In this document: positions 1 to 54,623 of the stretch, piece after piece
Position numbering within the stretch: position 1 is the stretch's first letter
Layout: every line of letters begins with the position of its first letter
DNA from: Negaprion brevirostris
Taxonomy: Eukaryota
Assembly: GCA_030324005.1 (NCBI GenBank)
Contig: JARDVH010000121.1
Coordinates: 9,326,438 to 9,386,720, forward strand
DNA: 60,283 bases
Direction: 5' to 3'
Made by a program: the position numbers and the translations under genes
The notes under the pieces: generated by a model
Seen by the model: the letters and a program-made list of their open reading frames with translations, nothing else
What the model was told of the DNA's origin: nothing
Databases searched by the model: none

Positions 1-194
1 TTGGCGTGTAGAATGTGATTGCGGCAACCTGCAGGAAATATTGGAACAAAAGCTTCAGTTTTAACATATTCATAGAGCTTAGCACCCATGGCCAGACGGC
101 ACGGTTCAACTTATCCTGCGAAAATAAACAAAACACAATCTTTGAAAAAATATGTTAATTAGGTCGTATATTTTTTTCTTGCCATGTCTTTCTT

Positions 195-8868: not shown

Positions 8869-9113
8869 ATCCTTCTACACTCCAACGAGTACAAACCTAG
8901 TCTCTTGCGACTCTCTTCATAGTCCAACCCCCTCATCTCCGGTATCAGCCGAGTGAACCTCCTCTGCACTCCCTCCAAGACCAATATGTCCTTCTGTAAG
9001 TGCGGCGATCAAAACTGCACACAACACTTCAGCCGCGTCCTCACCAGTACCCTGTCCAGTTGCAGCAAGACCTCCCTACCTTCATATTCTATCCCCCTCG
9101 CTATAAAGGCCAA
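8869..9113 (-). mobile_element. Young CR1 ORF2 fragment, 5'-truncated end of an insertion
   Basis: ORF 8682-8984 LEGVQRRFTRLIPEMRGLDYEESRKRLGLYSLECRR; host sequence resumes at ~9114. Confidence 0.9.
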
Positions 9114-11623: not shown

Positions 11624-11680
11624 TGTGTGTGTGTGTATATGTATGTGTGTATGTGTGTGCGTGCGTGTGTGTGTATGTGT
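11624..11680. repeat. Imperfect (GT)n microsatellite (paralogs at ~7594-7620 and ~16586-16636)
   Basis: Direct reading of the sequence; length differs between copies. Confidence 0.9.
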
Positions 11681-11866
11681 CGTATTCAGCGCGTCAGGGT
11701 GAAGTAAATTTGCATGTGATAATAAGATGAATAACCTTTCTGGGGACGGTAGAACTGAATGTCAGTGATTCGTCTCATTGTTTGCAATAAAGAAAATGAA
11801 ATGACAGAAGATGTAAACATTGTTTCACATCAGTAAATCAGTCAAGTGGAATGAGTTATGGTCATT

Positions 11867-11983
11867 AAAGAACAAAGAACAGCGCGGGAAATAGGCCCTT
11901 CGGCCCAACGAGCTCGCGCCGCCATTATATCATTACCAGCCCCCCACTCCACCCATGACCCTTATCTATGCTTATGGCAATCC
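11867..11983 (-). mobile_element. Short 5'-truncated retroposon 3' tail specific to copy B
   Basis: aaagaacaaagaac...aggcccttcggccca sits between gtcatt and taaagtgtaa; copies A (~7808) and C (~16822) are empty. Confidence 0.75.
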
Positions 11984-13089
11984 ATAAAGTGTAAAGGCTC
12001 TGGACCAGAATTTTGGATGCTTTAGGGAATAAAAAGAAGTCAGTTAACACGATAAAAGGAGGCACATGGATTGTTTCGTAGATTTTCACTGAGAGGCAAT
12101 TGCCGGAAAACGAGGTTTGATATTGAAAGATCCAGAAGAGTTGTGTACCTCGTAAGCATAGACTCAAATCAATTCGAGGCGGTGCTGCTTTGGTAAGGAA
12201 TAAAGACAACAATGTTGTGTTGAAAAGTTATATTAAAAAAATACCGGAGAGCAAGATGCTGAATAGATTTGGAAGTGTTAAGATACATAACAGGCACACT
12301 ATTGTACTTTTGAAATAGTCATCAAACTCTGCATTTGATTTTTATACGAAGATGAGCAAAGAACGTGTTTAACTTGGCCTCTTACATATAAATTAGAACC
12401 CATATACAATATATTTTAAAGACGCTTTAACGTTACAGATCAATTAACTTTTGACCTTGCAATGTATTATCCTTAGTAACTTGCAATCTTTGTTGATTCT
12501 TTGTCCAGCGGTCCATACACATGATCGTAACTCGAGAACAAGTTTGCATACGAAAATATGTGTTTACTTTGATGCTGTATAATCCGTTTTTTTATTACTG
12601 CTGGACGGAGAAATTTTGAAAACAGAAACTCTCGGAGAAAAATCCACAGTCATAGAACAGAATTTCGAAGGAATACACTGATTCACTAACACACCTCAAT
12701 GAGAAACTTCAGGGGGGCGGCGGATGGGGGGATGGGGGGAAGGAAGCGCAGCTTTTCTCAACAGGAAATGCATCATTCGTGCTTGAACATTCTCTGTCAA
12801 CCCAACTTCCACGTCACATTGCTGGAAATGCAAATAATATCATCAAGCCTCGCAGGACAATAGCTCAGCGGAAAAGAGCAGTACAACTTGAGTTCAGGTC
12901 AATATTGGCATTCGAGAGAGTTGGAGAAATTGTGATGCTGCAATGAAGGAAGAGATGGGTGCTGGTCGACAGAAAGACTCAGATTGCATCCGGGTACGAC
13001 AACAAATCCTGTTCAACACATATCTCAAATTCTCTTCGAAAATATGCAGTATCGTTTCAGTCCCCCCAAAAAGATACATTCCTGATGGT

Positions 13090-13470
13090 AGAAAGATATT
13101 AAGCTGGAAAAAAATAAGATCTGTAGCGGTGTAGATCATAGATTAGGAATTGTTAGGGATTTGGAGGAAAGGTAGGCCAATAATTATGGCTGATTTTAAA
13201 ATGTGGTCAGATTAGTTAAACAGCTATGAATGACAGTTTTGATGTAAGTACATTGAATGCTTTGAGGATTGGTTGTGTGAGAAAATGAACCACGGAACAA
13301 ACTGCTCTAGATTTGGTATCGTATAATGAGGAGGGATCAATTCATGACATTATAGTTAAATGTCACCGAAGGGCGAATGGTCATGACATTCTGGAGTTGA
13401 AAATTTCAATGCAGTGCTCAAACTGAGATTTCCACATTAGTGTTCTGGTCTTAATCATAGGCTATTGCAA
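13090..13470 (+). mobile_element. Old CR1 APE-endonuclease relic (paralog at ~17935-18310)
   Basis: Reads IIMADFK (MGDFN-like) and EQTALDLVSYNEEGSIHDIIVK...GHDILE (LDL...SDH-like). Confidence 0.7.
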
Positions 13471-14469
13471 AACATTGCGGAAGGATTGGACACCAGGTCC
13501 CTACATATTCAGTACCACTACACTGCTTTAGAATTGTTTCATCGATATCCTCTTGTTTATCTTATTGGCACCTCCAATTTCTATCTTCTTCCAATTTTTG
13601 TATTAATCCATTTCCATCTTTCCAGCTGTCAGACCCTCGATGATCCGTGTATTTGCCTTCAGCAATCAGGACAGTAAACAGGGGAAATGCATTCCAAAGC
13701 ATGGTGTTCACTCAGATCAGATGACGTTATTTCCAAAATTTGGTTCTTCAGGGAAACGTCGGTCATGCTTTGTTGCATTTTAACATTTTCTGATAACTGC
13801 AAATGTTTGATGGACAACAGTAATATCAGTAATTTGCGTGAGTTTTCACAGTTCAATTCCAGACTAACGCAAGATTGTAAGACAAAACAGGTAACAGAAA
13901 TGAAGGAAATACGAACAATTATTATCATATGCTTAAAAATCGGCACTGAACGATCTGTTGAGATTGAAAGCAAACAAGTTCACAGAGCTGATTGCCTAAA
14001 TCTTCCATATTAGATGAAGACTTTCCAGACATGATGGATTCCTTAGTTTGACTATTCCAAAATGTTCTGATTTCGGGAAATGCTCCAGTGACCTGGAAAT
14101 AACAGCTCAAATATTTTTCTTTGTCAACGAGCGAGGTTGACGTGAAGTAGAATATTTTCGAGTAAGCATTTTAGCATCTGAATTTGGCCACTTAATAGAG
14201 GAAAAAATAAAGAATTAATAACACGACACGTTGAATTTGAAAACGGAATTCATTAGCATGATAAGCGATATATAAATAATAAATTATGATCCACCAATTT
14301 GCTCGAATCATCACCAAATGTTGCAAACCAAGTGAATAGTATGGATATTGGGTGTAGAAAGGACTTTCTGACGACATTTAACTCCGTGTCACACTAAAAC
14401 TTAATTCACTTGATAAGATCACGTGGAGTTAGGTGTAACCTATTAGCTTGTAAAAAAACAGAACAAGGA

Positions 14470-14830
14470 AGTTGCGATATCTCGGTCTTTTTTTTTCGTT
14501 TGGCAACGGGGAACACGTGAGGGGTCATCGTATTAGTTCTTCCAAATAATTATGCTGCGTTTGGCTGACAAGGAGCCCAGGATGTAAGATAGCACAGCTA
14601 ATTTGTAGATGGCACAACGAAACAGGGAATTGAAATTATAAAACAAAGTTGCATGTTGGTTTTAAGAGTCTTGCTTGATGGGCCAAAATTAGACGCATGG
14701 AATTGAAAATTGAGGCATATGAGTTTATCGATTTTGGTCAGAAAATTACAATGGAAAGGCAGTTTAACTGTAAACCGAAAGAAACTTCAGAGTGGTCGGC
14801 TGCAGGTATTTTGGTTATGTTCGTGTATAA
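14470..14830 (+). mobile_element. Old CR1 reverse-transcriptase relic (paralog at ~19330-19680)
   Basis: tttgtagatggcaca (FADDTK-like); paralog ORF 19550 MELEIETCEFIDFGRKN resembles CR1 MEFNxxKCEVxHFGRKN. Confidence 0.65.
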
Positions 14831-14849
14831 TTTGCAACAAGCTTGTAAC

Positions 14850-15925
14850 CAAAAGAAAAAATAAGGTGGAAAATCTCAGCAAGACTGGCAGCACCTGCAA
14901 GGAGAGATTAAAAAAAAACAGACGTTTGGAGTCCAGGTCCCGAGTCAAAGGTAACATGCTTACAAAATGGGAGTTGTTTATACTGCAGGGTGAAGAAATA
15001 TGTAAAAAAAAAAGAATCATAGGCACAAAAAAGGAGGAAAGACTGCTAATGAAAGCCCATGGTAAATTAGAAGATGTGGTTGACCAAACGGAAAAAAAAA
15101 GTTGAAATCAGAGAGTTAGGTGTGGCAAATGATGATTTATGGAGTGGAGGGTGTAAAGTTGTGAAAATGGTGAAAAGGAAGCAAAAGGGGAGAAATTATA
15201 TGGAAAGTGGGGACAAGGGAGCTGGGGAGGGAATTGTAGCTGGAAGAAAGTAAAGAATGGGAAGAATGAAGGAAAAGTAAGGAACCGTTAAAATATAAAA
15301 AAAAGAATGGGCTCGACATGGGGTAAAACCAATCATCAGAACGTGTTGAAAGTTGTAATATGCCGAGCTGGAAGGCGTAAACTATTTATTTATTTTTTTC
15401 CCTGTATGTGTTGAGCTTCACATCAACATTGCAGCAGACCAATGACAGGTATGTGGGCATGGGAGGAAGATTCCGTGTGAAAATGTGAAGTCAGAGTCAT
15501 GATTGTACATCGACCAAATGTGCTCAGAAAAGTGATCACCCTGTCGACGTTAAGTTTCTCCAATATGGAGGAGACAAGATGAGAAGCAGTGAATGCAATA
15601 GGCCAATTTGAAGGAGCTGCAAGCCATGGTGAAACTTGAATGAGTAGTCTGAAACTTGAATGATACGTATTGAAGAGGTAAAGGGGCAGGCACTGTAGCT
15701 TTTGTGATTCAGTGGGAAAATACCACGGGTAATGGGAGAGTTGTTATTTTTCGTGGAGGACTGAATTAGGGTATTTTGGATGGAACAATCTCTGTGGAAA
15801 TCTGATAGAGGGAGTGAAGTGAAGGCGCGTTTGACAGTGGCATCACACTAGTTGAGCAAAAATGGTGGAGGATTATCCTTTGCATGCAGCAATTGGTTGG
15901 ATGAAATGCGAGAACAATGGGGACT
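14850..15925 (-). mobile_element. Penelope-like element 3' part (GIY-YIG region), truncated by a different insertion
   Basis: Paralog of 19700-20781. Confidence 0.8.
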
Positions 15926-18900
15926 TTATATATTCTTATATATATTATACATATATATTATGTTCTCTTTTGTCTTCACAGGTTTTAAGTCGGTCCGCCT
16001 TGTTGTCCAAACACGCGATGGGTCGTACTTGGGCTGCCCTTGAAGGTTCGAGAGTGGCCTAGTGCTTCATGTCGTTAGGGGGTGCTTAAACTGGACCAGA
16101 TGCTGGGCAACACGACAGCTCAGTGACTATCACTGTTTGCTGTGCAGACACATGGATTNNNNNNNNNNNNNNNNNNNNNNNNNNNNNNNNNNNNNNNNNN
16201 NNNNNNNNNNNNNNNNNNNNNNNNNNNNNNNNNNNNNNNNNNNNNNNNNNNNNNNNNNAGAGAACTGAAGAGGGATGAAAATATGGAGTGTTGTTATACT
16301 GAAGTACTGCGAGCAGCCAGGAACTAATTTAAGTAACGTAACAAAAACAATAATAATGTCTGAACCACGAGATAAGTGGCATGAGCCACGAGATAAGTGC
16401 TATGTGTCAACATGTATATAGAGGCAAATGTGTGGCTCAAACGTTGGCGTAGGGGAAATATGTTCTATTTATTGATAAATTAGCAACTGAACATTTCCTT
16501 CATGTGCATTCCCAATGAATCATGTTGGCACAAGCGTCCAGGTAAATCGCAGAACACTGATGAAAGAGGATTTTTTTTTTACTAGTGTGTGCGTCTGTGT
16601 GTGTGTGTGTTAGTGTTTGTGTGTTTGTGTGTGTGTCGTATTCAGGGCGTCAGGGTGAAGTAAAGTTGCATTGACAATCAGAAGAATAACCTTTAAGGGG
16701 AGGGTAGAACTGAATGTTTGTGATTCGTCTCATTGCTGGCAATAAATAAAATGAAATGACAGAAGATGTCAACATTGTTTCACATCAGTGAATCAGACAA
16801 GTGAAATGAGTTATGATCATTATATAAAGCGTAAAGGCTGTGGACTAGAATCTTGGACGCATTAGGGAATAAAAGGAAGTCAGTTAACATGATAAAAGTA
16901 GGCACATGGATTGTTTCATAGATCTTCACTGAGAGGCCATTGCCGGAAAACGAGGTTTGGTCTTTATTTATCCAGAGGTGTTAAGTAGCTCGTAAGCATA
17001 TACTCAAATCTATTTGAGGCTGTGCTGATTTGGTAAGGAATAAAGTGAGGAATGTTGTGGTGATTTTTTTTTTTAATACCGGAGAACAAGATGCAGAATC
17101 GTTTTGGAAGTGTTAAGATATATAACAGACACACTATTGTACTTTTGAAATAGTCGTCAATCTCTGCATTTGTTTTTTATACGAAGGTGAGCAAACAATG
17201 TGTTTCACTTGGCCTCTTATACATAACTTAGAAGACATATACAATATATTTTTAAAAAAGCTTTATCGTTACAAATAAATTAAGCTTTGACCTTGCAATG
17301 TATAATCCTTAATAACTTTCAATCTTTGTTGTTCCTATGTGCAGCGGTCCATATACATGAACCTATCTCTGGAACAAATTTGCATATGAAAATAAATGTT
17401 TACTTTGATGCTGTATATTCAGTTCTTTTATATTATTATTACTGCTGGACTGAGAAATTTTGAAAACAGAAACTCTCGGAGAAAAATCCACACTCATAGA
17501 CAGAATTTGAAAGTAATACACGGATCCCCTACCACACTCCAATGAGAAACATCAGAGCCGGGGCTGGGGCCGGCCGAATGGAAGCGCAGCTTTTTCTCAA
17601 CTGGAATTGCAGAATTTGTGCTTGAACATTCTCTGTTAACACAGCTTCCACGTCACACTGCTGGAACTGCAAATAATATCATCAAACCTCACACGACAAT
17701 AGCTCAGCGGAAAACAGCAGAACAACTTTAGTTCAGATTAATTGTGGCTTTAGAGACAATGGGGGAAATTGTGATGCTGCAATGAAGAAAGAGATGGGTG
17801 CTGGTAGACAGGAAGATTCAGAGTGCATCCGGCTACTACAACAACTCCTCTTCAACAATATATCTCAGGTTGTCTTCTAAACTATACAGTCTCATTTCAG
17901 TAGCAAAAAACATGAGACATTCCTGATGGTAGAAAGATATTAAGCCGGAAAAAAAAAATCTGTAGCGGTGCAGATCAAAGATTAGGGATTGTTAAGGATT
18001 TGGAGGAAAGGTAGGACAATAATTATGGCTGATTTTAAAACGTGGTCATATTAGTTAAACAGCTATGAATGATAGTTTTGATGCAATACATTGAATGCAT
18101 TGAGGATTGGTTCTGCGAGAAAATGAACCACGGAACATACTGCTCGAGATTTGGTATTGCATAATGAGGAGGGAACAATTCATGATCTTATAGTTAAACA
18201 TCACCAAAGGGCGAATAATCATGACATTCTGGAATTTAAATTTCAATGTAGAGCTCAAATTGAGATTTCCACATTAGTGTTCGGCTCTTAATCATAGGTA
18301 TTGCAAAAGTTTGTGGAAAGATTGGACACCAGGTACCTACATATTTAATACCACTACACTGCTTTAGAACTCTTTCATCGATATCCTCAAGTTTATCTTC
18401 TTGACAGCCCCAATTTCTATCCTTTTCCCATATTTGTATTAATCCATTTCCATCTTTCCAGCTGGCAGACCCTCGATGATCCATGAATTTGCCTTCAGCA
18501 ATGTGGGCAGTTAACAGGGGAAATGCATTCCAGCGCATGGTGTTCACTCACATCAAATGACGTTATTTCTAAAGTTTGGTCCTTCGAGGAAACGTCGGCC
18601 ATGATTTGTTGCATTTTAATATTTTCTGTTAATTGCAAATGTTTGATGGACCACATTAATATCAGTAATTTGCCTGAGTTTTCACAGTGCAGGACCAGAC
18701 TAACGCAGGATTGATAGACAAAACACGTAACAGAAATGAAGGAAATACGAACAATTATTATCGTAATCTCAAAAATGTGCACTGAAAGATCATTTGAGAT
18801 TGAAAGCAAACAAGTTCAAAGAACTGATTGCCTAAATCTGTGCGTCTTAAATGAAGTATTTTCAGACATGTTGGATTCCTTAGTTTTAGTATTCCACTTT

Positions 18901-19699
18901 TTTTCTGATTTTGGGAAATGTTCCAGTGACCTGGAAATAACTGCTCAATTATTTTTTTCTTATTCAAGCAGCGAGGTTGACATGAAGTAGAATACTTTCG
19001 AGTAAGCAGTTTCCAATCTGTGTTTGGCAACTTATTAGGAAAAAACATAAAAGCACGAATAACATGACACGTGGCATTTGAAAGCACAATTCCAAGCACA
19101 AAGCCTGACCATAGATATATGAATGATAAGTTATGATCCACAAATTTGTTTGAATCATCAACAAATGTTGCAAGTAAAGTGAAGACTAAGGATATTGGGT
19201 GGAGAATGGACTTTTTGAAGACATTTTACTCGGTGCCACACTAAAACTTAATTCACATAATAAGATCACGTGGAGTTAGGAATAACCTACTAGCATGTGA
19301 AAAACAGAACACAGAAAGTTGGGATATATGGATCTTTTTTTTCGGTTGGCAAGGGGGGACACGTGAAGGGTCATAGTGTTAGTTCCTGGTCCACTAAATA
19401 ATTATGTTGCATATAATTGACATGAAGCCCAGGATGTAAGATAGCATAACTCATTTGTAGATATCAAAAACGAAATAGGGAATTGAAATCATAAAACAAA
19501 ATTGCATTTTGAATTTTATAGTATTGCTGGATGGGCCAACATTTGACGCATGGAATTGGAAATTGAAACATGTGAATTTATCGATTTTGGTCGGAAAAAT
19601 ACAATGGAAATGCAGTTTAATTCTAAACTGAAAGAAGCATCAAAGTGTTGGGCTACGGGGGTTTTGGATATGCCCGTGTATAAATTGCAACAAACTTGT

Positions 19700-21935
19700 A
19701 ACCAAAAGTTTAGAAAAGGTGGAAAATCTCACCAAGTCTGGCAGCATCTGCAAGGAGAGAAAAAAAAACAGACGTTTGGAGTCCAGGTCCCTTGTCAAAG
19801 GTAACATGCATACAAAATGGGAGTTGTTTATACTGTACGGCGAAGGAATATATGTATAAAAGGCACAAAACAGGAGGAAAGACTGCTAATGAAAGCCCAT
19901 GGCAAATTCGAAGATGTGGTTGACCAATCGGAAAAAAAAAAGTTGAAATCAGAGAGTTAGGTGTGGCAAATGATGATTTATGGAGTGGAGGGTGTAAAGT
20001 TGAGAAAATAATGAGAAGGAGACAAAAGAGGAGAAAATATACGGAAAGTGGGGATAAGGGGGCTGGGGAGGGAATTGTAGCCGGAAGAAAAATGAAGAAA
20101 GGCAATAATGAAGGAAAAGTAAGGAACAGTTAAAATAAAAGAAAAAATAAAATAATGGGTTCGAGATGGGGTAAATCCAATCATCAGAATTTGTTGAACG
20201 CTGTAATGTGCCGAGCTGGAAGGTGTGAGCTGTTTTTTTTTTGTTTCCCTGAATGTGCTGAGCTTCACTTGAACATTGCAGCAGACCAATGACAGATGTA
20301 TGGGCATGGGAGGAGGATTCCGTGTTAAAATGTGAAGTCAGAGTCATGATTGTGCATAGACCAAATGTGCTCAGAAAGTGATCACCCAGTCTACGTTAAG
20401 ATTCTCCGATAAGGAGGAGACAATATGAGAAGCAGTGAATGCAATAGGCCAATTTGAAGGAGCTGCAACCCATGCTGCAACTTGAATGAGTAGTTTGAAA
20501 CTTGGGTGATAAGTATTGAAGAGGTAAAGGAGCATTTATTGTAGCTTTTGTGATTCAATGGGAAAATATCATGGGTAATGGGACAGTTGTTATTTATAGT
20601 GGAGGACTGAATTATGTTATTTTGGATGGAACACCCTCTGTGGAATTCTGATAGAGGGAATGAAGTGAAGGCGCGTTTGATAGTGGAATCACACGAGTTT
20701 AGGCAAAAATGGTGGAGGATTATGCTNNNNNNNNNNGCATGCAGCAGTTGATTGGGTGAAATGCGAGAACAATGGGGACTTGATCGTTGTTTTGGGAGGC
20801 AGCGGAGGGGTTGAGGGTCGGAGCGCAGGAAATGGATCTCCTGCTGTTGAGAACCCTGTCGACTACTGTAGTGGGAAACCATGGTTGTGGAAGGAGCGTA
20901 TATCAGATGCATCAATTTGAAAATTGACATCGGCTGGACAAATGTGGCAGATGCAAAGGAGCTGAGGGAAAGGGTTAAGGAATATTCAGAGCATAAAGGA
21001 TGCGATGAATGTGGTCCAGATACCTCCAGGTGTGATTGTGCTTTTAATGAGTATTGATAGAAAGAGTGTTGGCAGGAAAGGACGCAGAAATGTCAAGGAA
21101 GGGAAGGCAAGTGTCTCAGATGAACCAGTTGAAGGTGCTAGATGGGTGGAAACTGGAAGGAAAGGTTTTTTTTTTATTCCCAGGTACAGATAGGAGCATG
21201 AATCAGCACCAAAATAGTAACTGATGTACTGTTAAAGGAGCTGTGGGAGCGGAGGCCTGAAACAAGCAATGTTTCCCGCACCACATAAGGAAAAATGACA
21301 AACGTATCTAGGAACTAGCGGGTACGCAACGCTTCGCCTTTGATTAGGACGAAGAGGGATGAGTTGTAGGAGAAATTCTTCAGAGAAAAATACGTTTGGC
21401 CAGGCGGAGGAGACTGGTTTTGGATGGGAATTCTTCAGGCTTCTTTTTCAAAAAGAAATAGAAGCGAAAAACCCTCAGGTCATCGTGGTGTGGGATGGAG
21501 GTGTAGAGCGATTGCACATCTGTGGTGAAAAGGAAGTGCTGAAGGCCTGCAAACTGGAAGCTGTCAATGTGACGTGCAGCATCCGAGGAATCCCAGACGT
21601 GGGTGGGGAGGGAATGGACCAGTGGAGTGAGGATGCAGTCAAGACAAGAGGAAATTAGTTTGGTGGGGAGGAATGTGCTCGCAGAAATGGCCTGTCAGAA
21701 CAATACTGCTTTGTGGATTTTCGGAAGTAAGTAGGAACAGGCAGTCCAGGAATGGGAGAATGTGCAGCTGAACGCTGTGGGGGGAGAGCTGCCAGAGGAA
21801 AGGAGGCTGCTCACGGCGCTGAAGATAAAGCTTGACGTTCAGTGGCGTGATCTTAGTCCAGGGAAATGAACAATGAATTATTTGAGAGTTGGCGCTCAGC
21901 TTCTGCGAAATGGTGGTCAGCTGACAACAGCATCC
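19700..21935 (-). mobile_element. Decayed Penelope-like element (RT and GIY-YIG endonuclease)
   Basis: ORFs IILHHF...FPLSEFHRGCSIQ...DIFPLNHKSYNKCSFTSS and SHFNTESSSHAHTSVIGLLQCSSEAQ...FQLGTLQ resemble shark PLE C-terminal domains; terminal repeat gaaaatctcaccaagtctggcagcatctg. Confidence 0.85.
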
Positions 21936-21939
21936 CCCT

Positions 21940-22620
21940 TACCTGCAGCAAACGTGCATATACATTGACCAGATAATGAGGAAAGAAAATTGAATTTTGA
22001 CATTCGATGCTAAAGTAATGTAGGAAGAAAGTGGTGGAGTTTTGACGCAAAAAAGTAGATAAAGTTACTAACAGCGCACGTGGAGAATTGTGCACATTAT
22101 TGGTGATCACACCTGTTACTTTGTAATTGTATTGGATGCATTTCAGAGAAGGCTCACCAGATTGAATTTCAGAGATGGCTGAAGTGTGTATTGGCTACAG
22201 GTTGAGCCTTGTCTCCCTCCAGGTCGGAAGTGAGGGACAATTTCATCTCGATCGATCAAATTCTGAAATGTCTTCGAGGGTTTATGCAGAGAGGATATTT
22301 CGCCTTGAAACAATTCTATCAATCTCGAAACAGACGGTGTAGTTTTAGCATAAGCCCTAGAAAGCTTTAAAACATAGATCATGTGAAATGAATTCAGTCA
22401 ATTCGCATGCAATGCTTCATTTAATACCTCAAACGTCAGGAGGATGTCGGGACAGTCAGTAAATGTAAGGAGGGAACAGATATTTAATTCGTTTTTGATT
22501 GAAACGCAATTTTCAAAGAGACGACATGTCGTGCAGAGGCCAAAAGAAGATAAACCATGATTTTATTGAATGGCGGAGAAGCTTCTACGCTTAATCTCGC
22601 TCATCGTTACTTTAAATGTC
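21940..22620 (+). mobile_element. Old CR1 ORF2 C-terminal relic (paralog at ~24550-25240)
   Basis: ttggatgcatttcagagaaggctcaccagattg reads LDAFQRRLTRL, like the CR1 VQRRFTRL motif; followed by RDNLIxIYQIL. Confidence 0.7.
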
Positions 22621-23080
22621 TGACCTCAAATTACGTTTGCTGCAAAATGCAAGAATCATGTGTTCCATTATGTTAAACAATTTATTTGGCTATTGATAAT
22701 TACCTCTTAAGCCACTGTTGTCTTTCCTCAAAGATGCAATTGAATTGTCAGCTAAGGAAAGTTAAAAAAAAGAAGACAAATATGGTTTCGCTCCTCAATC
22801 ATTTCATTTCCATATGCTAGTGATTGCATCAAACGCTGTTTCCAGACTATATATTCTTCAGTACGAACACCAGCACAAAGCGGTTGTTCTTCAAACTTCA
22901 GTCCATTTCACCCATTGAATTTGGCATGCTTCATGATAGCTCCTACAAGAAATTTGTCATAAGTTGAAATTATGTGTCTACAGATTGCTCCTGTGTTGCA
23001 TATACCCGATTCTGTCACAACTCTTACGTGAGCAACATCATTCCGTTCCCGAATCACAAGCCGACATGAACTAATCTAAC

Positions 23081-23125
23081 CTGAAAGCTGCTTTGCAGGG
23101 CCAGTTTGACCAATCAAATTTCTGT
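23081..23125 (-). pseudogene. Candidate 45-nt phase-1 exon, copy C ((D)RNLIGQTGPAKQLS)
   Basis: tttttcttcacag|exon|gttaga; same length as the D and E copies; neighbouring exons in C have lost their AG acceptor. Confidence 0.5.
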
Positions 23126-24130
23126 CTGTGAAGAAAAAAAAACTCGCTGACAACAAAATATGTAAACATTCTGAAATTTCAAATGCAGAGAAGAATTCAT
23201 TTGCTAACAAGAGTGAATATCGAACCCTTACCCATTTTGTTAGATGCGTCGAAAGTTAAGTTATAGTATTGCAGAGGTGACTTCAAATTTCTGTCGTTGG
23301 CATTCTTGTTACTTCGGTTCACTGACAGAACGTTAACGACCAGACCAATGTGGTTATCCCAATTGAAGGGTGCCTTTGGCACCTATTCGACTTCGCACAC
23401 ATAACTTTGCAGAAGATCAGAGACCACCAGAAAGAAAACATCCCAAATTTGACTCGCTATTCAAAGGAAACATCTTCAGGATGAATTATTTGCCATCCTC
23501 TTTCGAGATATTTCGGGTTGTTGTAATGAAGTGGATTAATGACATGATAGGGGCCCAGTATCAGTTCATTTCATGCATATGGCCCGAACATGCTTTAATT
23601 CTCATGCATCAATTGCTTTCAAAATGGAGAAAAATAGCAAGGCAAATTGTACAATGTCATTGACTAAATTAAATATCTTGTTTGTAGATATCCGCAGGAA
23701 ACCTGCAACCCATTGGGATGTTTTCATCCATATTTTCTAGTTCTCCTTACTGAATTATACATTTGTTTTCAACATTTTGCTGTTCAGATATGGGCAATGT
23801 ATTCCAACCTAAGCTGCTCACTCACCTTTTTTGACATTAATTCCAAAAGATGTGTTCTTCGCCCAAACGTTGGCTTTTCGTTGTTGCATCTTCTCCTATC
23901 TGTCAGTATAATTGTTCGGCGTCGAATGTTGTTGACAGATTGAAGAAGGTGGCGTAACAGAAACTCATATCCCGCAAACATTTCCTGCGTGACTTCCTGA
24001 CATTCCACAAACTAAGTTATTGATTGCGTTNNNNNNNNNNNNNNNNNNNNNNNNNNNNNNNNNNNNNNNNNNNNNNNNNNNNNNNNNNNNNNNNNNNNNN
24101 NNNNNNNNNNNNNNNNNNNNNNNNNNNNNN

Positions 24131-24188
24131 TCCCTCCAAGGCCAAAATATCCTTGTGTAAGTGCGGCGACCAAAACTGCACACAGTAC
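24131..24188 (-). mobile_element. Young CR1 ORF2 fragment inserted into the PLE of copy D
   Basis: YCVQFWSPHLHKDILALEG; absent from copy C at ~21580. Confidence 0.85.
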
Positions 24189-24189
24189 A

Positions 24190-26680
24190 ACATCGGAGGA
24201 ATCCGACATGTAGATGGAGAAGGAATGGACCACTGGAGTGAGGATGCATTCAAGGCAAGTGGAAATTAGTTTGGTGGGATGGAACATGCTGGCACAAATG
24301 GCTTACCAGAACAGTCCTGTTTTGTGGATTTTCGGAATTATGTAGAAACAGGCAGTCCAGGATTGGGAGAATATGACGTTGAAAGCTCTGGGGGGAGGAC
24401 AGCCAGTGTAAGTGAGGTTGCTTCCGGCTTTGGAGATAAGAGCTAGACGTTCAGTGGTGTGATCATGGTCCAGGGGAATGCAAAATGAAATATTTGAGAG
24501 TTGGCCCTCAGCTTCTGCGAAATGGTGGTCAGCTAACAACAGCACCCCCTGAAATGTAGCAAACGTGTATGTACATTTCACAGTTAATGAGGAAGGACCA
24601 TTGAATTTTGACATTCGATGCTATACTAATGTAGGAAGAAGGTAGTGGAGTTTTGCTGAAGAAAACAAAAGTAGATAAAATTACTCACAGCGCACATGGA
24701 GAATTCTGCACGTTGTTTTTGTGATCGTACTTGTTATGATGCAATTGTATTGGATGCATTTCAGAGAAGACTCACCAGAATGAATTTCAGAGATGGCTAA
24801 AGTGTTTATTGGCGATCCGTTGAGCCTTGTATCCCTCCAGTTTAGAAGTGAGGGACAATTTGATCGGGATCTATCAAATTCTAAAATATATTAGAGGGAT
24901 TATACAGAGAGGATTTGTCCTTTTCAAACAATTACATCAATCTCAAAACAAATGGTGTAGTTTCAGGATAAGTTCTAGAAAGCTTAAAACCATAGATCAC
25001 GGTGAAATTAATTCATTCAATCCGCATGCAACTCTTCACTTCAATACCTTAAATGTCAGCTGGATGTCGGGACATTCCACAAATGTAATGAGGAGATAAT
25101 CAGATATTTAATTCGTAATTGGTTGAAATGTAATTTTGAAATAAAAAAATGCCATGCAGAGGCCAAAAGAAGTTACGCCATGATCGTATTGAAAGGCCAA
25201 CAAACTTCTACGCTCATTCTCGCTCATCGTTACGTTAAATTTCCCATCTTAAATTATGTTCTTTTTATTCCCACAATTTTAATGGATGTTGCCAGATTTT
25301 TTTGAGCTTTCTTAATTTCACTATTTGCTGCAAAATGCAAGAATCATATGTTACATTATGTTCCACAATTTATTTGGCTATTGCTAATTACGTCTTAATC
25401 TTTTACGTCAAAAAAAAAACTGCTGCATGCCTCAACGATGCAATTGAATTGTATGGTAAGGGAAGGTAAAGAAAAAAAGACAAATATGGTTTCTCTCCTG
25501 AATCATTTGATTTCAAAATGCTGGTGATTGCATCAAACGTTGTTTCCGGACATATAAACATTTATGAACACCAGCACAAAGCGGTTGTTCTTTAATCTTC
25601 AGTCCGTTTCACATTGAATTTGGCATGCTTTATGGTAGCTCCGACATTAAATTTGTCAGAAGTTGCAATAGTGTGCTCCTGCCTTTTACATACCCTATTC
25701 CGTACGTGAGTAGCATCGTTCTGTTCCCGAACCACAAGCCGAGATGAACTATTCTTACCTGAATGCTGCTTTGCAGGGCCAGTTTGTCCCATCAAATTTC
25801 TCTCTGGAAAGTAGAACAAAAAATATCGCCGATAACAAAATATATAAACGTTCTGAAATTTCAACTGCAGTGAAGAATTCATTTGCGAACAAGAGGGAAT
25901 GTCGAGCACTTATCCATTCTGTTAGATGGCTCGAAACTTAAGCTACAGAGTTTCAGATGTGACTTCAAATTTCTGTCGTTGGCATTCATGTTACTTCGGT
26001 TCACTGACAAAACTTTAACGGCCAGGCCAATGTGGCTCTACCAATTGAAGGGTGCCTTTCTCACCTATTCGACTTCGCACGCATGACTTTGCAGAAGATC
26101 AGAGGCTACCAGGAAGAAAACGACCCCAAGTCGACTCGTTATTGAAAGGAAACATATTCAGGGTGAATTATTTACCTTCCTCTTTCGAGATTTTTCGGTT
26201 TGTTGTAATGAAGTTCCACTCATTTGTATACCACTAACATGTTTTAGTTCTCATGTATCAATTGCTTTCGAAATGGAGAAACAAATAGCTCGGCAAATTG
26301 TATAACGTCATTGACGAAATTAAATGTCTTGTTTGGAGATTTCAGCAGAATACCTGCAACCCACTGGGATGTTTTCATCCATATTTTCTATTTCTCCTTA
26401 CTGAATTGTACATTTGCTTTCAACATTTTGCTCTTTAGATATGGGAAATGAATTCCAACCTACGATTCACTCACCTCCTTTAAAATTAATTCCAAAAAGA
26501 CGCGCTCTTCGACGAAACGTAAGCTATCCATTGTTGCATCTTCACCTATCTGGCAGTACAAATGCCTGACGACGAATGTTGTTGGAAGAGTGCAGAACAT
26601 GGCGTAACTAGGAACTCATATCCCGCAAATAAAAACCCTTCGTATTTTCCTGACATTCCACAAACTAAGACATTGTTTGC
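24190..26680 (+). repeat. Duplication-unit copy D (PLE end, CR1 relic and micro-exon segment)
   Basis: Colinear with 21580-24030. Confidence 0.95.
25759..25803 (-). pseudogene. Candidate 45-nt phase-1 exon, copy D ((E)RNLMGQTGPAKQHS)
   Basis: ttttttgttctactttccag|exon|gtaaga; strong canonical splice sites. Confidence 0.5.
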
Positions 26681-27371
26681 ATTTCTATAAAATAACGGGT
26701 GTTCGTTATTGTCTCATTGGATTCTGCAGATTGAGTTATACGTGTACGGTTGTTTCCATAATGCAAGCATGACAATCAACTATGTGACAGTAATATTTAG
26801 TTAAACTCCTTAAACTTTGGAATTTTCAAGTTTCTCCATCTCATCCACTGTCATCCTTATCGTGTTTCGTCCTAAACATCAACGGATAAAGTGCCTGTCC
26901 TAAGTCTACTTTTTGTAGCACTTCGAAGATGAGTATGCAAAGAGCACAAAATGTTATCACTTTAACACGAACATTTCAACAGATTTTTTTTCAGCAGTTA
27001 AATGAAGAGAAGAGCTCAATTATGTTGCCACCAGTCACTGTTGTGCTAATCGCTTAGCTAAGCGGCTAATTGAATTTAGTGCCATCGTTGAAGCAGGGAG
27101 GGGATATTTCCACTGCGTCCACAGACCCGTCTGCTGAATGAAACCACACGCGGAGAGTTCTGAAGAATCGAGACAGACTTCTGGAGCTCTAGAATGAGTA
27201 ATCAAAGTGACAGGCATATGACAGAAGAGAAAACATTGAGTGAGTTTCAGGAGTGTGAACTGCATTTTTTGACACAACGGTCCCCAAATATAAATGATAT
27301 CATGCTCAATTTAAATTTTGCGATCCTAGAAAACTGCAACAAATGGCTAAATTCGCACACATGCACGCAGT

Positions 27372-27374
<3 letters not shown>

Positions 27375-27403
<29 letters not shown>
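27375..27403. repeat. (CA)n microsatellite
   Basis: Direct reading of the sequence. Confidence 0.95.
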
Positions 27404-27406
<3 letters not shown>

Positions 27407-29039
27407 TTGAAGGGATGAGAAACTGATATTTTGCACCAATTACTTAGCAGATTGTTGGAATGTTGGCAGGGGTGCATAGTATTAACTGATTAAACGCGGG
27501 ATGGATTTGACCTGGACTACATAGCAGAAATCTTTTATTTCCGAAAATAATATAGAAGTATTGACAATTTGTTCCAGCGATGGAGATTAAGAATCGAAAA
27601 AGGTGCACAATTCGTAAAGGGTTAGAAGACATGTACTATTGACATAATTTGCAGCAGAGATCGTTTCAGAAGGCATGCCAAAAAAAAAACAGTGCTGAAC
27701 TGCTAAGGAGATAATTTTCCCGATATACGGCTGACTTGCGCTGTCTAATGTAGCATGTGGGCATCCACCAGATTCACATTTATCGCTGACAGATGACTTC
27801 AAAAAAGATATGGGGTGATGAAAAAGCACACACAGTTTTAAACAATTTTACCACAAATTCCTTGGTATGGTGATCAGCAGAGTATTTTATCTCCAAAGAT
27901 GCAATCCCGCCGGGCTTAAAATTGACAGAAGCTGTTTTGTGGAAATGATTCTGTCATACAGGATGAGACGACAGAAGGAATGTTATTTGTGGGCCAATGC
28001 ACCAAAGTGCAAAATGAGCGGAGTAAATTCCAGCATGCCGCGTTTCCACAGCATTGANNNNNNNNNNNNNNNNNNNNNNNNNNNNNNNNNNNNNNNNNNN
28101 NNNNNNNNNNNNNNNNNNNNNNNNNNNNNNNNNNNNNNNNNNNNNNNNNNNNNNNNNNNNNNNNNNNNNNNNNNNNNNNNNNNNNNNNNNNNNNNNNNNN
28201 NNNNNNNNNNNNNNNNNNNNNNNNNNNNNNNNNNNNNNNNNNNNNNNNNNNNNNNNNNNNNNNNNNNNNNNNNNNNNNNNNNNNNNNNNNNNNNNNNNNN
28301 NNNNNNNNNNNNNNNNNNNNNNNNNNNNNNNNNNNNNNNNNNNNNNNNNNNNNNNNNNNNNNNNNNNNNNNNNNNNNNNNNNNNNNNNNNNNNNNNNNNN
28401 NNNNNNNNNNNNNNNNNNNNNNNNNNNNNNNNNNNNNNNNNNNNNNNNNNNNNNNNNNNNNNNNNNNNNNNNNNNNNNNNNNNNNNNNNNNNNNNNNNNN
28501 NNNNNNNNNNNNNNNNNNNNNNNNNNNNNNNNNNNNNNNNNNNNNNNNNNGCACGAATAAATTGGTGGCATGAATTCGGTCAACGTGGCGGGTAGGGGGG
28601 CAGATCTGATCATGTTGTGCGACATTGGGTGGGCTATTACGATGTCAATCGTTCCTTGAAGTCTTCAGTTTGACGGGTGTTGGCTCTGACAAATGTTTGG
28701 GTACGGCAGAGTTTCTCGCGCCTGTTTGGGCTGGGTAGTTTGGGGGTTGGTGCACATGCAGGAGACTGCTAGAGTCATTCACTTCGCGTGAGGCGGATCA
28801 CATAATCGGACTGCGGGATCGGTAGTGTTCGTGCATTCAGGGCAGTGGGCTGTTACGTGGCATATTTGGAAAGCGAGAAGGTTAGAGTTATTTCGATGGA
28901 AGGGATGGGATGCTGAGTGTTATAATCGTTAAGAATATCATCGGGGCCGCGGTGCTCTTTTGCCGAATGTTGACGTTGTGGGCTGAGCACAGCATGAAGT
29001 GTTCAGTCGTGTTTGCTCTTCATTTCAGTAGGCACTCGA

Positions 29040-29330
29040 TATTCAACTGTCTTTTTACGGACCAGGAGTCACATCGGGCGAGACTGGATATCAATGCCAA
29101 AATCACTTGTCTATTGAAGCAGCTTTTTTTTTGTATGTGTGCGTGTGGGTGAGAGGGGGTGGGGGCCAATCGGCAATGATTTTATGTTCATCATTAGATT
29201 TTAAATACATAATGTTTTGTTGAACTATATTGTTTCCACCTGCCATCCGGGGATCGAACACAGTTTCCAAGGCTTAATCTTGGGTGTCTGGATTCTAGTA
29301 TTGTGAAAATACCACTGTGTCACTTCCTCC
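29040..29330 (-). mobile_element. Degenerate tRNA-head SINE
   Basis: ggagtcacatcgggcgagactgg...catcattagattttaa...ccacctgccatccggggatcgaac...aataccactgtg; same family as 37060-37410. Confidence 0.7.
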
Positions 29331-30921
29331 CTGATTGAATTACTGTTTGTTTTTCTGTGGTGATGTGCATGGTCAATTGGATTGTTGCGGAGTGGTGCAT
29401 CTACTAACTATCGCTTGGTGTGTGTGTTTAAATCAAAGGAGCAGTTTGAAACCCAAGCTTTTGCATCTGCATGGGAATGGTTGGGGGAGCCAATGTCAGA
29501 ATTGTGAACCGGGAATACACGATTGTATTACTTCGAGATGGTGTTTGCTTGACACTTTTGACTCCTTTCTAAGCTGGAACATGGATTTCAGACTTTTTTT
29601 TGCATCTGAAAATCGGCCGCTTCACTCCTTGAGGCGTTTGACATAGCATTCAATTTCAACCTCCTTATTTGATGACGTCAACTTAAATCTCTCAGCATTC
29701 CATGTGTAGTTTATTTACGGAAGATAAACATATTTATATCGACGAGATGTTTGGTTTTATCACTTCGTAGGTTGTTCAGCAGTGAAAAGGTAAATACACG
29801 AGCGCAAGATATCGTTCAGCAGTACTGGATCGAGCACCTCGTTGATGAGTTAATGATCCCAGATTCACTCCCACACTTCGACGGCCACATTTTAATTATC
29901 AACGTCTCACCAACAGACCAATGCCACTTTTGCTTCAGAATGTATTGGCAAGCGCATGGTGAAATAAAAAATACTTAGGACAGATTTTATTATCTGCGCG
30001 CACACACCCACCCTAGTAAGTAAAAGGGGAATCAGGAAGAAGGTGGAGACATATACATGTGTGTCGCAGAGATTGTACACTTAGCCGTAAGTGTCCTGTA
30101 TTTATCACGCTACCCCTTAGTTTTGCTTTTATCTGCCATTGAGTGTCGCCAATGGCGACCAATTAAAAGAAAGAACATACGGAGTCTTTTGATCAAAGAC
30201 GACAAAATCTGTGAAAAATAAATCTCAATACATGCATGTGGGGCAGGATGAGCCTGGTGAGGCGCAATGGAACAGTGCATTTGGGACCCATGAATGATGT
30301 CATTATTGATAAAAAGTACAATTCCTTAAATAATTGGTGTTTCAAACTGTCGTGAGAATCAAAGTATATCAATAATGAAAATCATGGAGCTGTGTACGAA
30401 GGGGGAAATAAATATTAATCCCATGACTGCCGCTTTGTATATTTATTACAACGTGGCAGAAGATTTAATTTAAATAAAATATACGCACGCCATGTTCCAC
30501 GGAGAATGCCAGAAATGTGCACCTCAAAACAGGAAAGCTATTTTTTTTTTCTATGTTTCTTTTTTTTTGCTAGTTTCCAGTAGTGCATGTATTTCTGACA
30601 GGTATTTACATGCAATAATCGGGAAATTGCGGAATCNNNNNNNNNNNNNNNNNNNNNNNNNNNNNNNNNNNNNNNNNNNNNNNNNNNNNNNNNNNNNNNN
30701 NNNNNNNNNNNNNNNNNNNNNNNNNNNNNNNNNNNNAGCAGTCGGTACTTACAAGAAAGTTAATGATTTGTTTTTTTTTTCAAAATTTTTTTGGCAATAT
30801 TTCTCCTCATAAATGTTGTCGCAAGTCTGTAAGTAAATTCGGTACGAGATGTGCTGCTCCAACTCATCTGGATCAAATTGTGCCATTTGAGAAGAAATCA
30901 CATTTCGATCATGGGCACATT

Positions 30922-32100
30922 AAATGTGAAAACATGCTCAATGACGCATTTGTCATATTGTTTCTCCTGTACAGGCAGTTCAACTAGCCAGAACTCAAAT
31001 CAGATGAGTCGTGTTGTACCGAATTGCAACAAAGAAGGGATAGCTTTTCATGGCCTTTGTTGCACTGTTCCATAAAGATGTGTGACTTTTTTTTATTCTC
31101 AGAAGTACGACCTCTCGGCTTACTCCTCCAAAAGTACTGGATGAAAGGCTGGTGCAGTGGCTGATATCTTAGCATTATGAGAACACGATGCTGAAATATT
31201 GCCTGGACGTTACCTCAGCAAAAGAACCTCCAGGGTTACCATCGAGAAATAAACGATCGATTTATGGAATGAAATGGTAACGTTGGGCTGAGTCAGAGCT
31301 TTGTTGGTTCAATTTAAAACGACTGGAAAAGTTTCGTTCATTACAGAAGAATGCACATAAATGCCCATTGGGTAAATCTCGGATGGGTGTACCTGGCTGG
31401 CCTTTCAGACTGTAAAACATATTGAAGACTAAACTCTATTTTGGAGTGACAACACACTCCATGTAATTATTGCAACTGGAGATGAGTGGATCGTCATCTC
31501 TATCCAGCAAAAAAAATGACGTCAGATTTCACATCGAGCAATGTCAGTATATTTATGTCGGATGAAATTTCCATGAGTTATTTGATCTAGAATAATTGTT
31601 TTGCAATGGAATATCAGATCTAATGATTCATTGTGCAGACAATATCAATGAAGTACCAGAAGGTATTCTCATCAACATGAAAAATCTAGAGACATGCATT
31701 AAAATTGGAAGCTAAAGTTTGGTTACATGGAAAATGTACAACAAATTGTACAACTTGGTATCTATTGATTCAAGTGACACACTGCAAGTGTGTTCAACGG
31801 AAATTAAGCTCTAATCAACAACAGCATATTGAAAGAGATTCCACTCTTTTTTTTGGAAACTCATCCCAACGCTTTATCGCTCCAACATCAATGGAGCTTC
31901 AATTACTTGAGTAGGTTTCCTGAACTGTCACTCAAACTTGCACATCTTCCAAACGGATTCTTTAGGGTTTCTACTGGAAGCTAGGCGTGTTGAATTCATT
32001 TCTGACAAATGTAAAGGAACAGGGGCAATTTCAGAATGAACAATTGATACATGAGCATCACGATGTATTGTGCATCGTGGAACGTTGCGTGGTTACTGGT
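30922..32100 (+). repeat. Paralog of 2087-3300
   Basis: Starts aatgtgaaaacatgctcaatgacgcatttgtcatattg in both copies; colinear to gttgcgtggttactggtt. Confidence 0.95.
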
Positions 32101-32185
32101 TAAGAACATAAGAGCATAAGAAGCAGGAGCAGGAGTAGGCCATCGAGCCCTTCGAGCCTGCCCCCCCCCTTCAGTAAGACCTTGG
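32101..32185 (-). mobile_element. Young CR1 3' end, cut by a gap
   Basis: taagaacataagagcataagaagcaggagcaggagtaggccatcgagcccttcgagcctg. Confidence 0.85.
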
Positions 32186-33762
32186 NNNNNNNNNNNNNNN
32201 NNNNNNNNNNNNNNNNNNNNNNNNNNNNNNNNNNNNNNNNNNNNNNNNNNNNNNNNNNNNNNNNNNNNNNNNNNNNNNNNNNNNNTTCGTTTAGATCACG
32301 AATACTGAATCTGAACATGAATTAACGTATTTAAAACTGAACTGATGAAGGAACGATTCCGATTGCAGCGATTATTTTTCTTCCCTAACCAGTGCCTCAA
32401 TTCATAGGAATTAATCGCTGAATGGAAAAAAAAATGCAAAAGAAATAAAATGTCAATCTTCTGCGAACGAGAAAGACAATCTTTGTTTTCTTTTTGTTTA
32501 AATACCTTTTGATCTTAACTCTTCTTTCAGATTTTTCGGCTCTGAAACATGGGCCATAAAATTCTTTCTTTTTTTTTGGTTGTGTTAATCCGATATCTAC
32601 GTTGTCATGTGTGTAAAATACACGGCTGTTAATCATCACTATTCCCAATAGTGTTCAACAGGGTTAGGTTGCGTACACAAATTATGAAATATGTTGTCTT
32701 AAAATTAATATTCCCTTCAACAAATTAAGAGAAAAAATGAAGAAACATTTTAGCATTGCGCATAAACTTCAACTGAATAGTCAGACGATAATTTGTACCT
32801 GAACGAAAAACTCAATGCAAAGTTATAATGCAATGCCAGACGCTGATTTCAACGAGAGACGTGTATTGTTAAGTAGCTCACACAGGTCTCTCATTGAAGG
32901 AGTCATTCAGTGTAAAAATTCAAATTGAGGGCCAGAGTGTGTATGTATGGCTGAGAAATGCGCGGGATTTCCAGAAACAAGATTCTATTATTTTGCCAGA
33001 AGATCTTCCTAAAATTGATGACAGTTGAAAGGTGAACTTCATTTTTCCTTCAGGCGAAGGATCGTACAAGAACTAGTATTCCTCGTTGCACAAACCAAGG
33101 AAATTGATTCGGAGAGATGGAAACTGATTTAAAAGGTAAATATAGATGAGGACATGAACAGCACAACCTGCTCGTGAGTGTTCAGTGAACGATGGTCAAT
33201 CGGAACTCGATATATTAATTGGTGGAAATACACATAGCTCGCATAATTATCTCAGTATGTAGTAATCATACTATTTTTTACGCGTGTGCTATGGTTGAGA
33301 ATGGATGCACTGAGCTGATGTTAGTGGGAGCGTTGAACAAATTAAATGTTGAAATGATGCCTTAAAATTTAACACATATTGTTGATAATTGACAATAGAC
33401 ATTTAAGTGTTTTTTTTTGCAAGCTGTGTGAAGTTAAAGCAAAGGGAAATATTATTTCTCTCCTGATTAATTTGACTTCGATTACCTGGTGATTGCATCG
33501 CACGGTTATTCCAGACCTGTTATCATTTGTTTTGATTTTGATCTGAACATCAGCACAAAATGTTCGTACTTCAATCTTTAAGACGTTTCAAACATTGAAC
33601 TTGGTGAAAGCTTCATACTAGCTCTCACAAGGCACTAGGCATAACTTGCGATAATGTGACGACAGATGTTACCTGCGTGCCAGATACCCTGCGTTTTTCA
33701 AAACAAGCACGTGAGCAGGACTGTCTGTTGACAAATCACATGGCGAGATTAAGTATTCTTAC

Positions 33763-33807
33763 CCCCATACGGTTTTTTGGGCCCCGGCTGCCTCACGGAA
33801 TTGTTTC
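33763..33807 (-). CDS. Candidate 45-nt phase-1 exon, copy E ((G)NNSVRQPGPKKPYG)
   Basis: tttttcccttttcag|exon|gtaaga; length and phase identical to the C and D exons despite high divergence. Confidence 0.5.
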
Positions 33808-34187
33808 CTGAAAAGGGAAAAACAAATGTCAGCACTTGTCAACAACACAACTATACTTCCTTCATGTTACTGGAGACAAGGATTCATTTGCTATCAGTGG
33901 TGAATGTCGAGCATTGTCCATTGTACTACATTGTTTGGAACTTGAGCGATAGAACGGCAGAGGTGACTTCGAATTTGTGCCGTCAGTAATCTTAGCTCAT
34001 TGGTTCACTTGGAGAATGTTAACGGCAGAGCACAATGGCGCCCAGTATGGCTTACCCAACTGAAGATTGCATTTGCCACCCTTTCAGAGCTACACATATA
34101 ATTTTGCAGCCGATCAGAGGCTAACATGGGGGAAATGTCCAGATTTTGTTTTCGGCATGAAAGAAAAATTCTGCAAGATTCATTTAC

Positions 34188-34214
34188 CATCCTCTTTCAA
34201 GATATTGTTTTTTG
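34188..34214 (-). CDS. Candidate 27-nt phase-1 micro-exon, copy E ((A)KNNILKED)
   Basis: cactaat branch-like motif, then tgttttattgcag|exon|gtaaat; 27-nt homologs at 23494-23520 and 26176-26202. Confidence 0.45.
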
Positions 34215-34565
34215 CTGCAATAAAACATCGATAAATTAGTGTCGTGATAGGTAAGTTATATCAGTTGCATTTTGCTTAGCCTTTATTTCAATTTGAATGT
34301 AACAATTGAGTTAGAACGCGTGCTTTTCCTTTAAAAACTCATCTTTTAGAAAGCATTATATAAGTTTCGGAAACATGACAAAATGTCATGCAGTCTTCCA
34401 TTTCTGGATTCGCGCAGAAGCACATCACCACATTGGGAGTGTTTAAATCCATATCCTCCAGTTTCGCTTCATGATGACCGGCCCTTGATGAATTGTCCAC
34501 CTGTTTTCCACATTATGTATTTATGCAGGAGAAATACACTCCGACCCCTGGCGTTCACACATCAC

Positions 34566-34579
34566 CTTTAACATTGATA
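34566..34579 (-). CDS. Candidate 14-nt phase-2-to-1 micro-exon, copy E (INVK)
   Basis: atcttttag|tatcaatgttaaag|gtgatg; 17-nt homologs at 23826-23842 and 26475-26491 with gtgagt donors. Confidence 0.35.
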
Positions 34580-34699
34580 CTAAAAGATTGCTTCTTTGAC
34601 TAAATGTATGTCACCAATTATTGCATATTTAGCTGACCGATAACTGCAAATGTTTGACGGCGATAGTTATTCGCAGAGCAAAACCGATGGCTTAGTTGA

Positions 34700-34970
34700 T
34701 CGGCACAGTGGCACAGTAGTTAATACTGCTGTTTTACAGCGCCAGGGACCTGCATTCAATTCTCAGATCGGATCACTGTTTGTGTGGATTTTGCACATTA
34801 TCCCCGGGTCTGTGTGCGTTCCCTCTGGGTGCTCCGGTATCCTCCCACAGTTGAACAGATGTGCTGTTTGATGAATTGACCTGAACGGGTGTCTTCGTGT
34901 GGCGTCTAGGGGGATTTCGCAGGAACTTCATTGTTGTTAATGCAAACCGTACTTATAACTAATAAATAAT
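34700..34970 (+). mobile_element. HE1-type (V-SINE) element inserted into copy E
   Basis: ggcacagtggcacagtagttaatactgctg...cagcgccagggacc head, ccctctgggtgctccggtatcctcccacag core and aataaataa tail. Confidence 0.85.
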
Positions 34971-54593: not shown

Positions 54594-54623
54594 CTGAAGG
54601 AGTGCGAGGTGCTTTTGGTCCTG
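54594..54623 (-). CDS. Candidate 30-nt (or 27-nt via NAGNAG) phase-1 micro-exon ((A)GPKAPRTPS)
   Basis: ttttcaatgtttctag|caggacc...ccttcag|gtaaga; strong donor. Confidence 0.3.

Follow-up and report, generated by a model that had tools for sequence, protein, structure and literature searches.

Duplicated segments and their candidate exons

The window, the whole stretch of 60,283 bp that was analysed here, corresponds to C121:9326438-9386720 of the 2.69-Gb genome of Negaprion brevirostris. Over positions 1..34700 it is a mosaic of local segmental duplicates, which are 64–87% identical to one another and are interrupted by 100-N assembly gaps. The preliminary description had named three of these segments, C, D and E, as homologous, and this is borne out by pairwise identities of 65% (E and C), 64% (E and D) and 80% (C and D). 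The block that bears their candidate exons exists in five copies, namely C, D, E and those on the small contigs C792 and C13340; no extra copy was found within 200 kb on either side of the window, and the others lie only on small unplaced contigs. Copy E was recovered without a single difference (0 over 32329-34556) as a contig from the DNA run. Elsewhere in the window, 44788-45158 and 46766-47137 form a 373-bp direct duplicate that is 94% identical and lies beside a gap, possibly an assembly overlap, and 41500-42050 is a dispersed low-copy repeat with 11 other places at 66–74% identity.

In the five-copy alignment the 45-nt block is free of gaps, and it has a polypyrimidine-AG acceptor in all five copies and a GT donor in four, with TT in C13340, in keeping with the acceptor and donor that had been reported for C, D and E. 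As background for this alignment, E has 67 AGs and 76 GTs, of which 18 and 19, respectively, are retained by C as well as D, and of the 1288 windows of 49 columns 188 contain no gap. Only 10 phase-1 candidates in 460 kb, both strands counted, passed a strict cut-off, and the three 45-nt copies were among the strongest. Used as a protein query, the 29-aa frame that surrounds the 45-nt exon matched itself alone. The 27-nt block is also gap-free in all five copies, and its donor is GT in four and GC in C; its presence in all copies thus holds for length (five of five), but the acceptor AG is confined to E, the other four copies having AA at this place. We regard the 27-nt and 45-nt blocks as likely real exons, and the 27-nt exon of copy E is probably live.

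A 36-nt exon that had been overlooked earlier lies downstream of the 45-nt exon of E, 1.2 kb away, and its local score was 84, compared with 40 for the best of 300 shuffles. Because it has intact homologues, at 9698, at 5816 and on contig C14251, the duplicated unit would be a 27+45+36 cassette. The remaining candidate in Table 1, upstream of E, is off the heptad profile described below and is present as a single copy. Splice scores given here come from matrices that were heuristic or were trained on the array itself.

Table 1. Candidate micro-exons and exon remnants in the window (positions of the window; array, the micro-exon array described below)
Feature	Position	Strand	Basis and remarks
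Putative 45-nt phase-1 micro-exon, copy E	33763..33807	-	Acceptor in top 0.04% of AGs; looks like a Gly/Pro-rich hinge
Putative 45-nt exon, copy D	25759..25803	-	AG/GT, open; acceptor 10.3, donor 11.4
Putative 45-nt exon, copy C, weak donor	23081..23125	-	AG/GT, open; donor exceeds just 3% of array exons
Putative 27-nt phase-1 micro-exon, copy E, heptad-type	34188..34214	-	AG/GT; splice scores inside array range
27-nt exon remnant, copy D	26176..26202	-	Alignment; acceptor AG lost
27-nt exon remnant, copy C	23494..23520	-	Alignment; AG lost, donor GC
Putative 36-nt phase-1 micro-exon, copy E	32506..32541	-	AG/GT, open frame in 4/4 homologous copies
Putative 36-nt heptad micro-exon, duplicate	9663..9698	-	AG/GT; aligned with 32506-32541
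Putative 36-nt heptad micro-exon, duplicate	5781..5816	-	AG/GT, open; profile 2.8, 1/27 controls as high
Weaker candidate: Pro-rich linker exon of 30 (or 27) nt, upstream of E	54594..54623	-	Strong donor, modest acceptor
'14-nt exon', likely what remains of a decayed 18-nt phase-1 exon	34563..34579	-	Weak acceptor, mutated donor, length not 3n
18-nt remnant, copy D	26475..26492	-	Alignment; GTGAGT donor, no AG
18-nt remnant, copy C	23826..23843	-	Alignment; GTGAGT donor, no AG

The exons had also been described as conserved across the paralogs, and this stands for their length, frame and splice sites but not for their identity, which is not above that of the introns. The 45-nt block of E is 47–51% identical to the other copies, compared with 64–67% for intron 2, the intron preceding it, and the p-value of 0.012 for this low identity was obtained post hoc for one pair. 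The 27-nt block of E is 74–85% identical to the other copies (p 0.11), and among C, D, C792 and C13340 exon identity is not significantly higher than intron identity (p 0.39 and 0.35). No excess of synonymous change or of identity was seen in the exons among the copies.

The smallest block, of 14/17 nt, was rejected as a working exon. Its AG is present only in E and has no pyrimidine tract, and the acceptor score of -3.7 is attained by 63% of all AGs and is lower than that of all 105 array exons. Where C, D and C13340 have the GTGAGT donor, E and C792 have AT, and the GT of E lies 3 nt upstream. An exon of 14 nt would moreover disrupt the array's phase-1 frame. The in-frame splice of three exons that was proposed to begin with this block therefore fails, since the acceptor is weak, the homologous donor is mutated and 14 nt shift the frame. 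The third-codon differences quoted in its favour (att/atc and gtc/gtt) are present, but they amount to just two sites. The aligned copies suggest an 18-nt phase-1 exon as the probable ancestor of the block. A longer form of this upstream exon, of 70–75 nt, was discarded too, with stops or length changes in most copies.

False micro-exon calls do occur in this DNA: a common repeat, at 19733-19747 and ~14880-14900, has an end that at 19747 looks like a strong 15-nt exon, and the duplicate has lost the donor. Candidates at 19747, 9127 and 6052 were set aside as lying inside what we take, from their motifs, to be repeats, that at 6052 having dispersed homologues.

A strand-biased array of phase-1 micro-exons

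A scan for short AG..GT blocks was made over 1.26 Mb around the window. The flanks are rich in 27- and 36-nt phase-1 candidates with K/E/L-rich peptides, whose strand changes from minus, below ~73 kb, to plus, above ~82 kb. With the strand switch set by eye at 78 kb, the strand and length test over 860 kb gave 38 versus 5 candidates at 27 nt and 27 versus 2 at 36 nt, the mean being 5.9 per length, and 62 of the 65 candidates of these two lengths are open in phase 1, compared with 23 and 37 in the other phases. The 45-nt length is without enrichment in the array (6 versus 6). The bias was repeated in DNA added later, with 3 and 2 candidates of 27 and 36 nt versus 0 and 0 at -476 to -400 kb, and 6 and 16 versus 2 and 4 at 460–660 kb. 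These statistics of strand, length and phase uphold the earlier proposal of a phase-1 micro-exon gene that ORF finders cannot see. The minus-strand span of 554 kb holds 80 candidates versus 10 on the other strand; because some of the 80 overlap or are false, we estimate the rod at ~60–70 exons and 600–800 residues.

The peptides follow a heptad pattern. Among 47 exons of each size from outside the window, hydrophobic residues occupy positions 1, 4, 8 and 11 of the 36-nt exons, with Cys at position 4 in 17/47, and position 3 of the 27-nt exons; in the joined 36+27 pair, positions 1, 4, 8, 11, 15 and 22 of the heptad series are hydrophobic and position 18 is not. K/E/R/Q/L/D make up 62% of the array peptides, and Pro and Gly account for 12 and 19 per 601 residues. 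Against a profile built from 47 array exons that lie beyond the window, the 27-nt peptide of E scores 7.6, more than 27 of those 47 exons when they are held out and more than every one of the 36 controls from the opposite strand; it is a typical member of the array. The 36-nt peptide of E scores 2.1, with 2 of 27 controls equal or higher.

Further arrays surround this one. On the plus strand, a second micro-exon array occupies C121 ~9.41–9.98 Mb (window +82 to +660 kb) and extends further, head-to-head with the first; it may terminate in the SPRY matches at 10361023 and 10951939, its length then being ~1 Mb. A third array at C121:8726438-8805680 (L140-L147), also on the plus strand, ends in a B30.2 exon at 8805323 and lies tail-to-tail with the gene studied here. 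Fragments at L034:9596-L035:5470 (window ~+140 kb) bear motifs typical of endogenous retroviruses and may be a remnant of one.

A B30.2/SPRY exon at the 3′ end of the array

At the 3′ end of the array, 476 kb below the window's first position, lies an intact minus-strand SPRY exon (C121:8849747-8850064), which scored 57.8 bits in Pfam at a cut-off of 26.3. PRY was not detected there by Pfam, and a separate PRY search gave no match near the locus among the 150 scored of 155. The exon matches BTN3A1 at an E-value of 5e-19, and its best solved relatives are BTN3A1 and TRIMs. Scaffold C121 carries five further SPRY exons, with related B30.2 exons at 8311556 and 6228247; two of its six B30.2 exons (L168:541-999 and L169:406-816) stop early, at 153 and 137 aa compared with ~182, and may be broken.

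The SPRY exon is 75% identical to Scyliorhinus canicula XP_038668997.1, and residues 111–192 of this catshark protein map, in order, to six micro-exons just upstream of the SPRY exon; of 1087 candidate matches to these residues, the four best are among the six, and one 7-residue stretch of the protein has no matching exon. The predicted gene model of another species thus lends independent support to a junction of array exons with B30.2. A second catshark relative, XP_038671249.1, of 945 aa, consists of a rod, Gly/Pro linkers and SPRY only. The 45-nt peptides of C and D match one of its linkers weakly (scores 21–22), and that of E matches the protein poorly (score 8). Longer relatives in Atlas clusters, of 1277–1802 aa, have SPRY/PRY without Ig or RING families.

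Interpretation of the array and its cassettes

We consider it probable that the 27-, 45- and 36-nt blocks form a cassette near the 5′ end of a micro-exon gene of ~550 kb, which encodes a predicted coiled-coil rod and likely ends in the B30.2/SPRY exon 476 kb downstream. Splicing of the blocks, and a single transcript from the window to B30.2 across 60 scaffold segments, are what we infer from this arrangement. Because the span crosses 60 segments with 100-N gaps and is 15% N, the window exons could be part of another gene. Rather than separate genes, the neighbouring copies are likely to be duplicates of a single exon block that arose locally. Hence the repeated duplication that had been noted did occur, but its unit is most likely a cassette inside one very large gene and not a family of small genes.

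In the proposed mechanism every exon would be a multiple of 3 nt with the codon split identically. Duplication, loss or skipping of exons would thus leave the frame intact, and the rod could grow, shrink or be alternatively spliced in frame through its symmetric exons. A 36+27 pair would give 21 residues, that is three heptads, and the 45-nt Gly/Pro exons may provide hinges. One cassette may have been copied about five times and then have decayed exon by exon, the 27-nt exon being retained in E and presumably silenced in the younger copies by the AG-to-AA change, with the 45- and 36-nt exons mostly retained. By analogy with the tails of BG and butyrophilins, the product would most likely be a cytoplasmic dimeric rod of adjustable length with paired B30.2 binding domains, which might serve in sensing or as a scaffold; in view of its cysteines, it might also be disulfide-linked or secreted.

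The gene of the array might be real and yet all cassette copies in the window, E included, be dead intronic duplicates. This would agree with the decay seen among the copies, in which the 27-nt acceptor is lost in four of five, the upstream remnant is dead in five of five and the 45-nt donor is lost in one of five, and with the absence of a purifying signal among them. Copy E, however, has three exons that are still open and flanked by AG/GT, although its introns diverge by ~35% from those of the other copies, and its exon scores are typical of array exons, so we judge this reading unlikely.

If instead the rod were the cytoplasmic tail of a BG/butyrophilin-type receptor, the window exons would still be real, and the signal, Ig and transmembrane exons would lie in gaps near 69–87 kb. 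Heptad micro-exons followed by B30.2 are the plan of butyrophilin tails in two accounts (PMC5938342, PMC12841164), the solved relatives of the B30.2 exon point the same way, and near the strand switch the assembly has gaps at 69–70, 73.6–74 and 83–87 kb that could hold such exons. Against this, a tblastn of 145 proteins, including butyrophilins and TRIMs, over 1.26 Mb (15% N) gave only B30.2 exons and LINE-like pieces, no V-set match was found near the locus among the 150 scored of 927 candidates, and the long relatives are without Ig families. Neither tblastn nor a motif scan nor the V-set search gave an IgV/IgC ectodomain in this region, which is 15% N, and no Ig, transmembrane or RING exon was seen in the assembled DNA (15% gaps). 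Four hydrophobic stretches at 34–140 kb are not convincing as a signal peptide or transmembrane exon, and XP_038671249.1 has no signal or transmembrane segment by eye, in a model that may be 5′-incomplete. We give the receptor tail little credence. The immune-receptor stalk or tail suggested at the outset was nevertheless the nearer of two guesses, through the heptad exons of BG and butyrophilins, though no Ig or transmembrane exon accompanies it in the DNA searched. On C84, at ~85–101 Mb, PRY/SPRY exons are densely clustered and accompanied by a few V-set matches; this is probably the principal TRIM/butyrophilin region.

Duplication here of a set of independent small genes, whether elastin-like or encoding receptor stalks, would account for the five homologous copies and for the Gly/Pro content of the 45-nt exon, but it is very improbable, given that no copy has a start, terminal or domain exon, that the 27- and 36-nt exons match the array profile and that all window copies lie on the strand of the array. 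Searches for domains were negative around the window: Pfam placed none of 110 window ORFs above its cut-off, and neither the long-ORF lists nor a generic exon finder over the flanks yielded a domain exon. No first exon of the array gene was found either. Chance AG/GT motifs within neutral segmental duplicates, which do explain the 14-nt block and of which the repeat end at 19747 is a warning, are hardly credible for the rest, in view of the few strict phase-1 candidates in 460 kb, with the 45-nt copies among the strongest, and of the excess at 27 and 36 nt.

Comparison with known systems

The preferred reading, a long rod built from micro-exons and likely ending in B30.2, has its closest parallel in exon design in chicken BG, where a long coiled-coil is made from many tiny split-codon exons of variable number and the heptad crosses exon borders (PMC5938342). 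The likeness lies in heptad repeats carried by symmetric split-codon micro-exons. BG has 27–37 exons of 21 nt behind Ig-V and transmembrane exons, and B30.2, the typical end of mammalian butyrophilin tails, is absent from the BG parts listed in that source (PMC5938342), whereas the exons described here are mostly of 27 or 36 nt, extend over ~550 kb and likely end in B30.2, with no Ig or transmembrane exon found in the assembled DNA. In butyrophilins, Ig domains and a membrane segment are combined with heptads of variable number and a C-terminal B30.2 (PMC12841164). Mammalian and reptile members (BTN3A1 and relatives) thus share heptad repeats followed by B30.2 with the present gene, but they have few heptads together with IgV, IgC and a transmembrane segment, unlike a rod estimated at 600–800 residues at a locus where searches returned no such domains.

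TRIM proteins with B30.2 (TRIM39, A33-like), from which the automatic names of the catshark models derive, resemble the gene in combining a coiled coil with B30.2. They differ in their RING/B-box, for which the assembled DNA gave no match over 1.26 Mb and which is missing from the Pfam columns of both XP_038668997.1 and XP_038671249.1. Because Ig and membrane exons were not found and RING/B-box is absent, we place the gene in neither the butyrophilin/BG nor the TRIM group.

Elastin-like proteins alternate Gly/Val/Pro hydrophobic exons with Lys cross-link exons. The array peptides, rich in charged residues and leucine, do not follow this pattern, and the elastin-like protein that had been considered gives way to a coiled-coil rod of a family ending in B30.2. 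The enterophilins of guinea pig, which are soluble and combine B30.2 with a long leucine zipper, may be comparable to the product of the gene described here.

The nearest relatives are the two catshark proteins. XP_038668997.1 is a probable orthologue, given its identity over B30.2 and the six exons in order, and XP_038671249.1 is a paralogue with rod and linker motifs in common; both are automatic predictions with misleading names, and the former covers only the last few micro-exons. RefSeq already contains automatic models of family members. A literature search, with most subscription papers and supplements outside its reach, returned no description of a coiled-coil/B30.2 micro-exon family. 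The locus hints at a large gene family that annotation recovers in pieces or under misleading names, and for which exact candidate junctions are given here, and within what is most likely one gene it displays exon-cassette duplication and exon-by-exon loss in progress.

As a tentative extension, which we think possible though doubtful, cartilaginous fishes may possess an undescribed cluster of giant B30.2 genes (0.5–1 Mb, several of them on a single chromosome arm) without Ig or RING, encoding ruler-like rods tuned by birth, death and skipping of 27/36/45-nt cassettes, with rapidly evolving hinge exons under diversifying selection; next to TRIMs and butyrophilins, these would be a third class among the immune sensors that carry B30.2. 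If the N-terminus is truly without Ig and RING, the gene bears on the origin of the BG, butyrophilin and TRIM architectures in jawed vertebrates.
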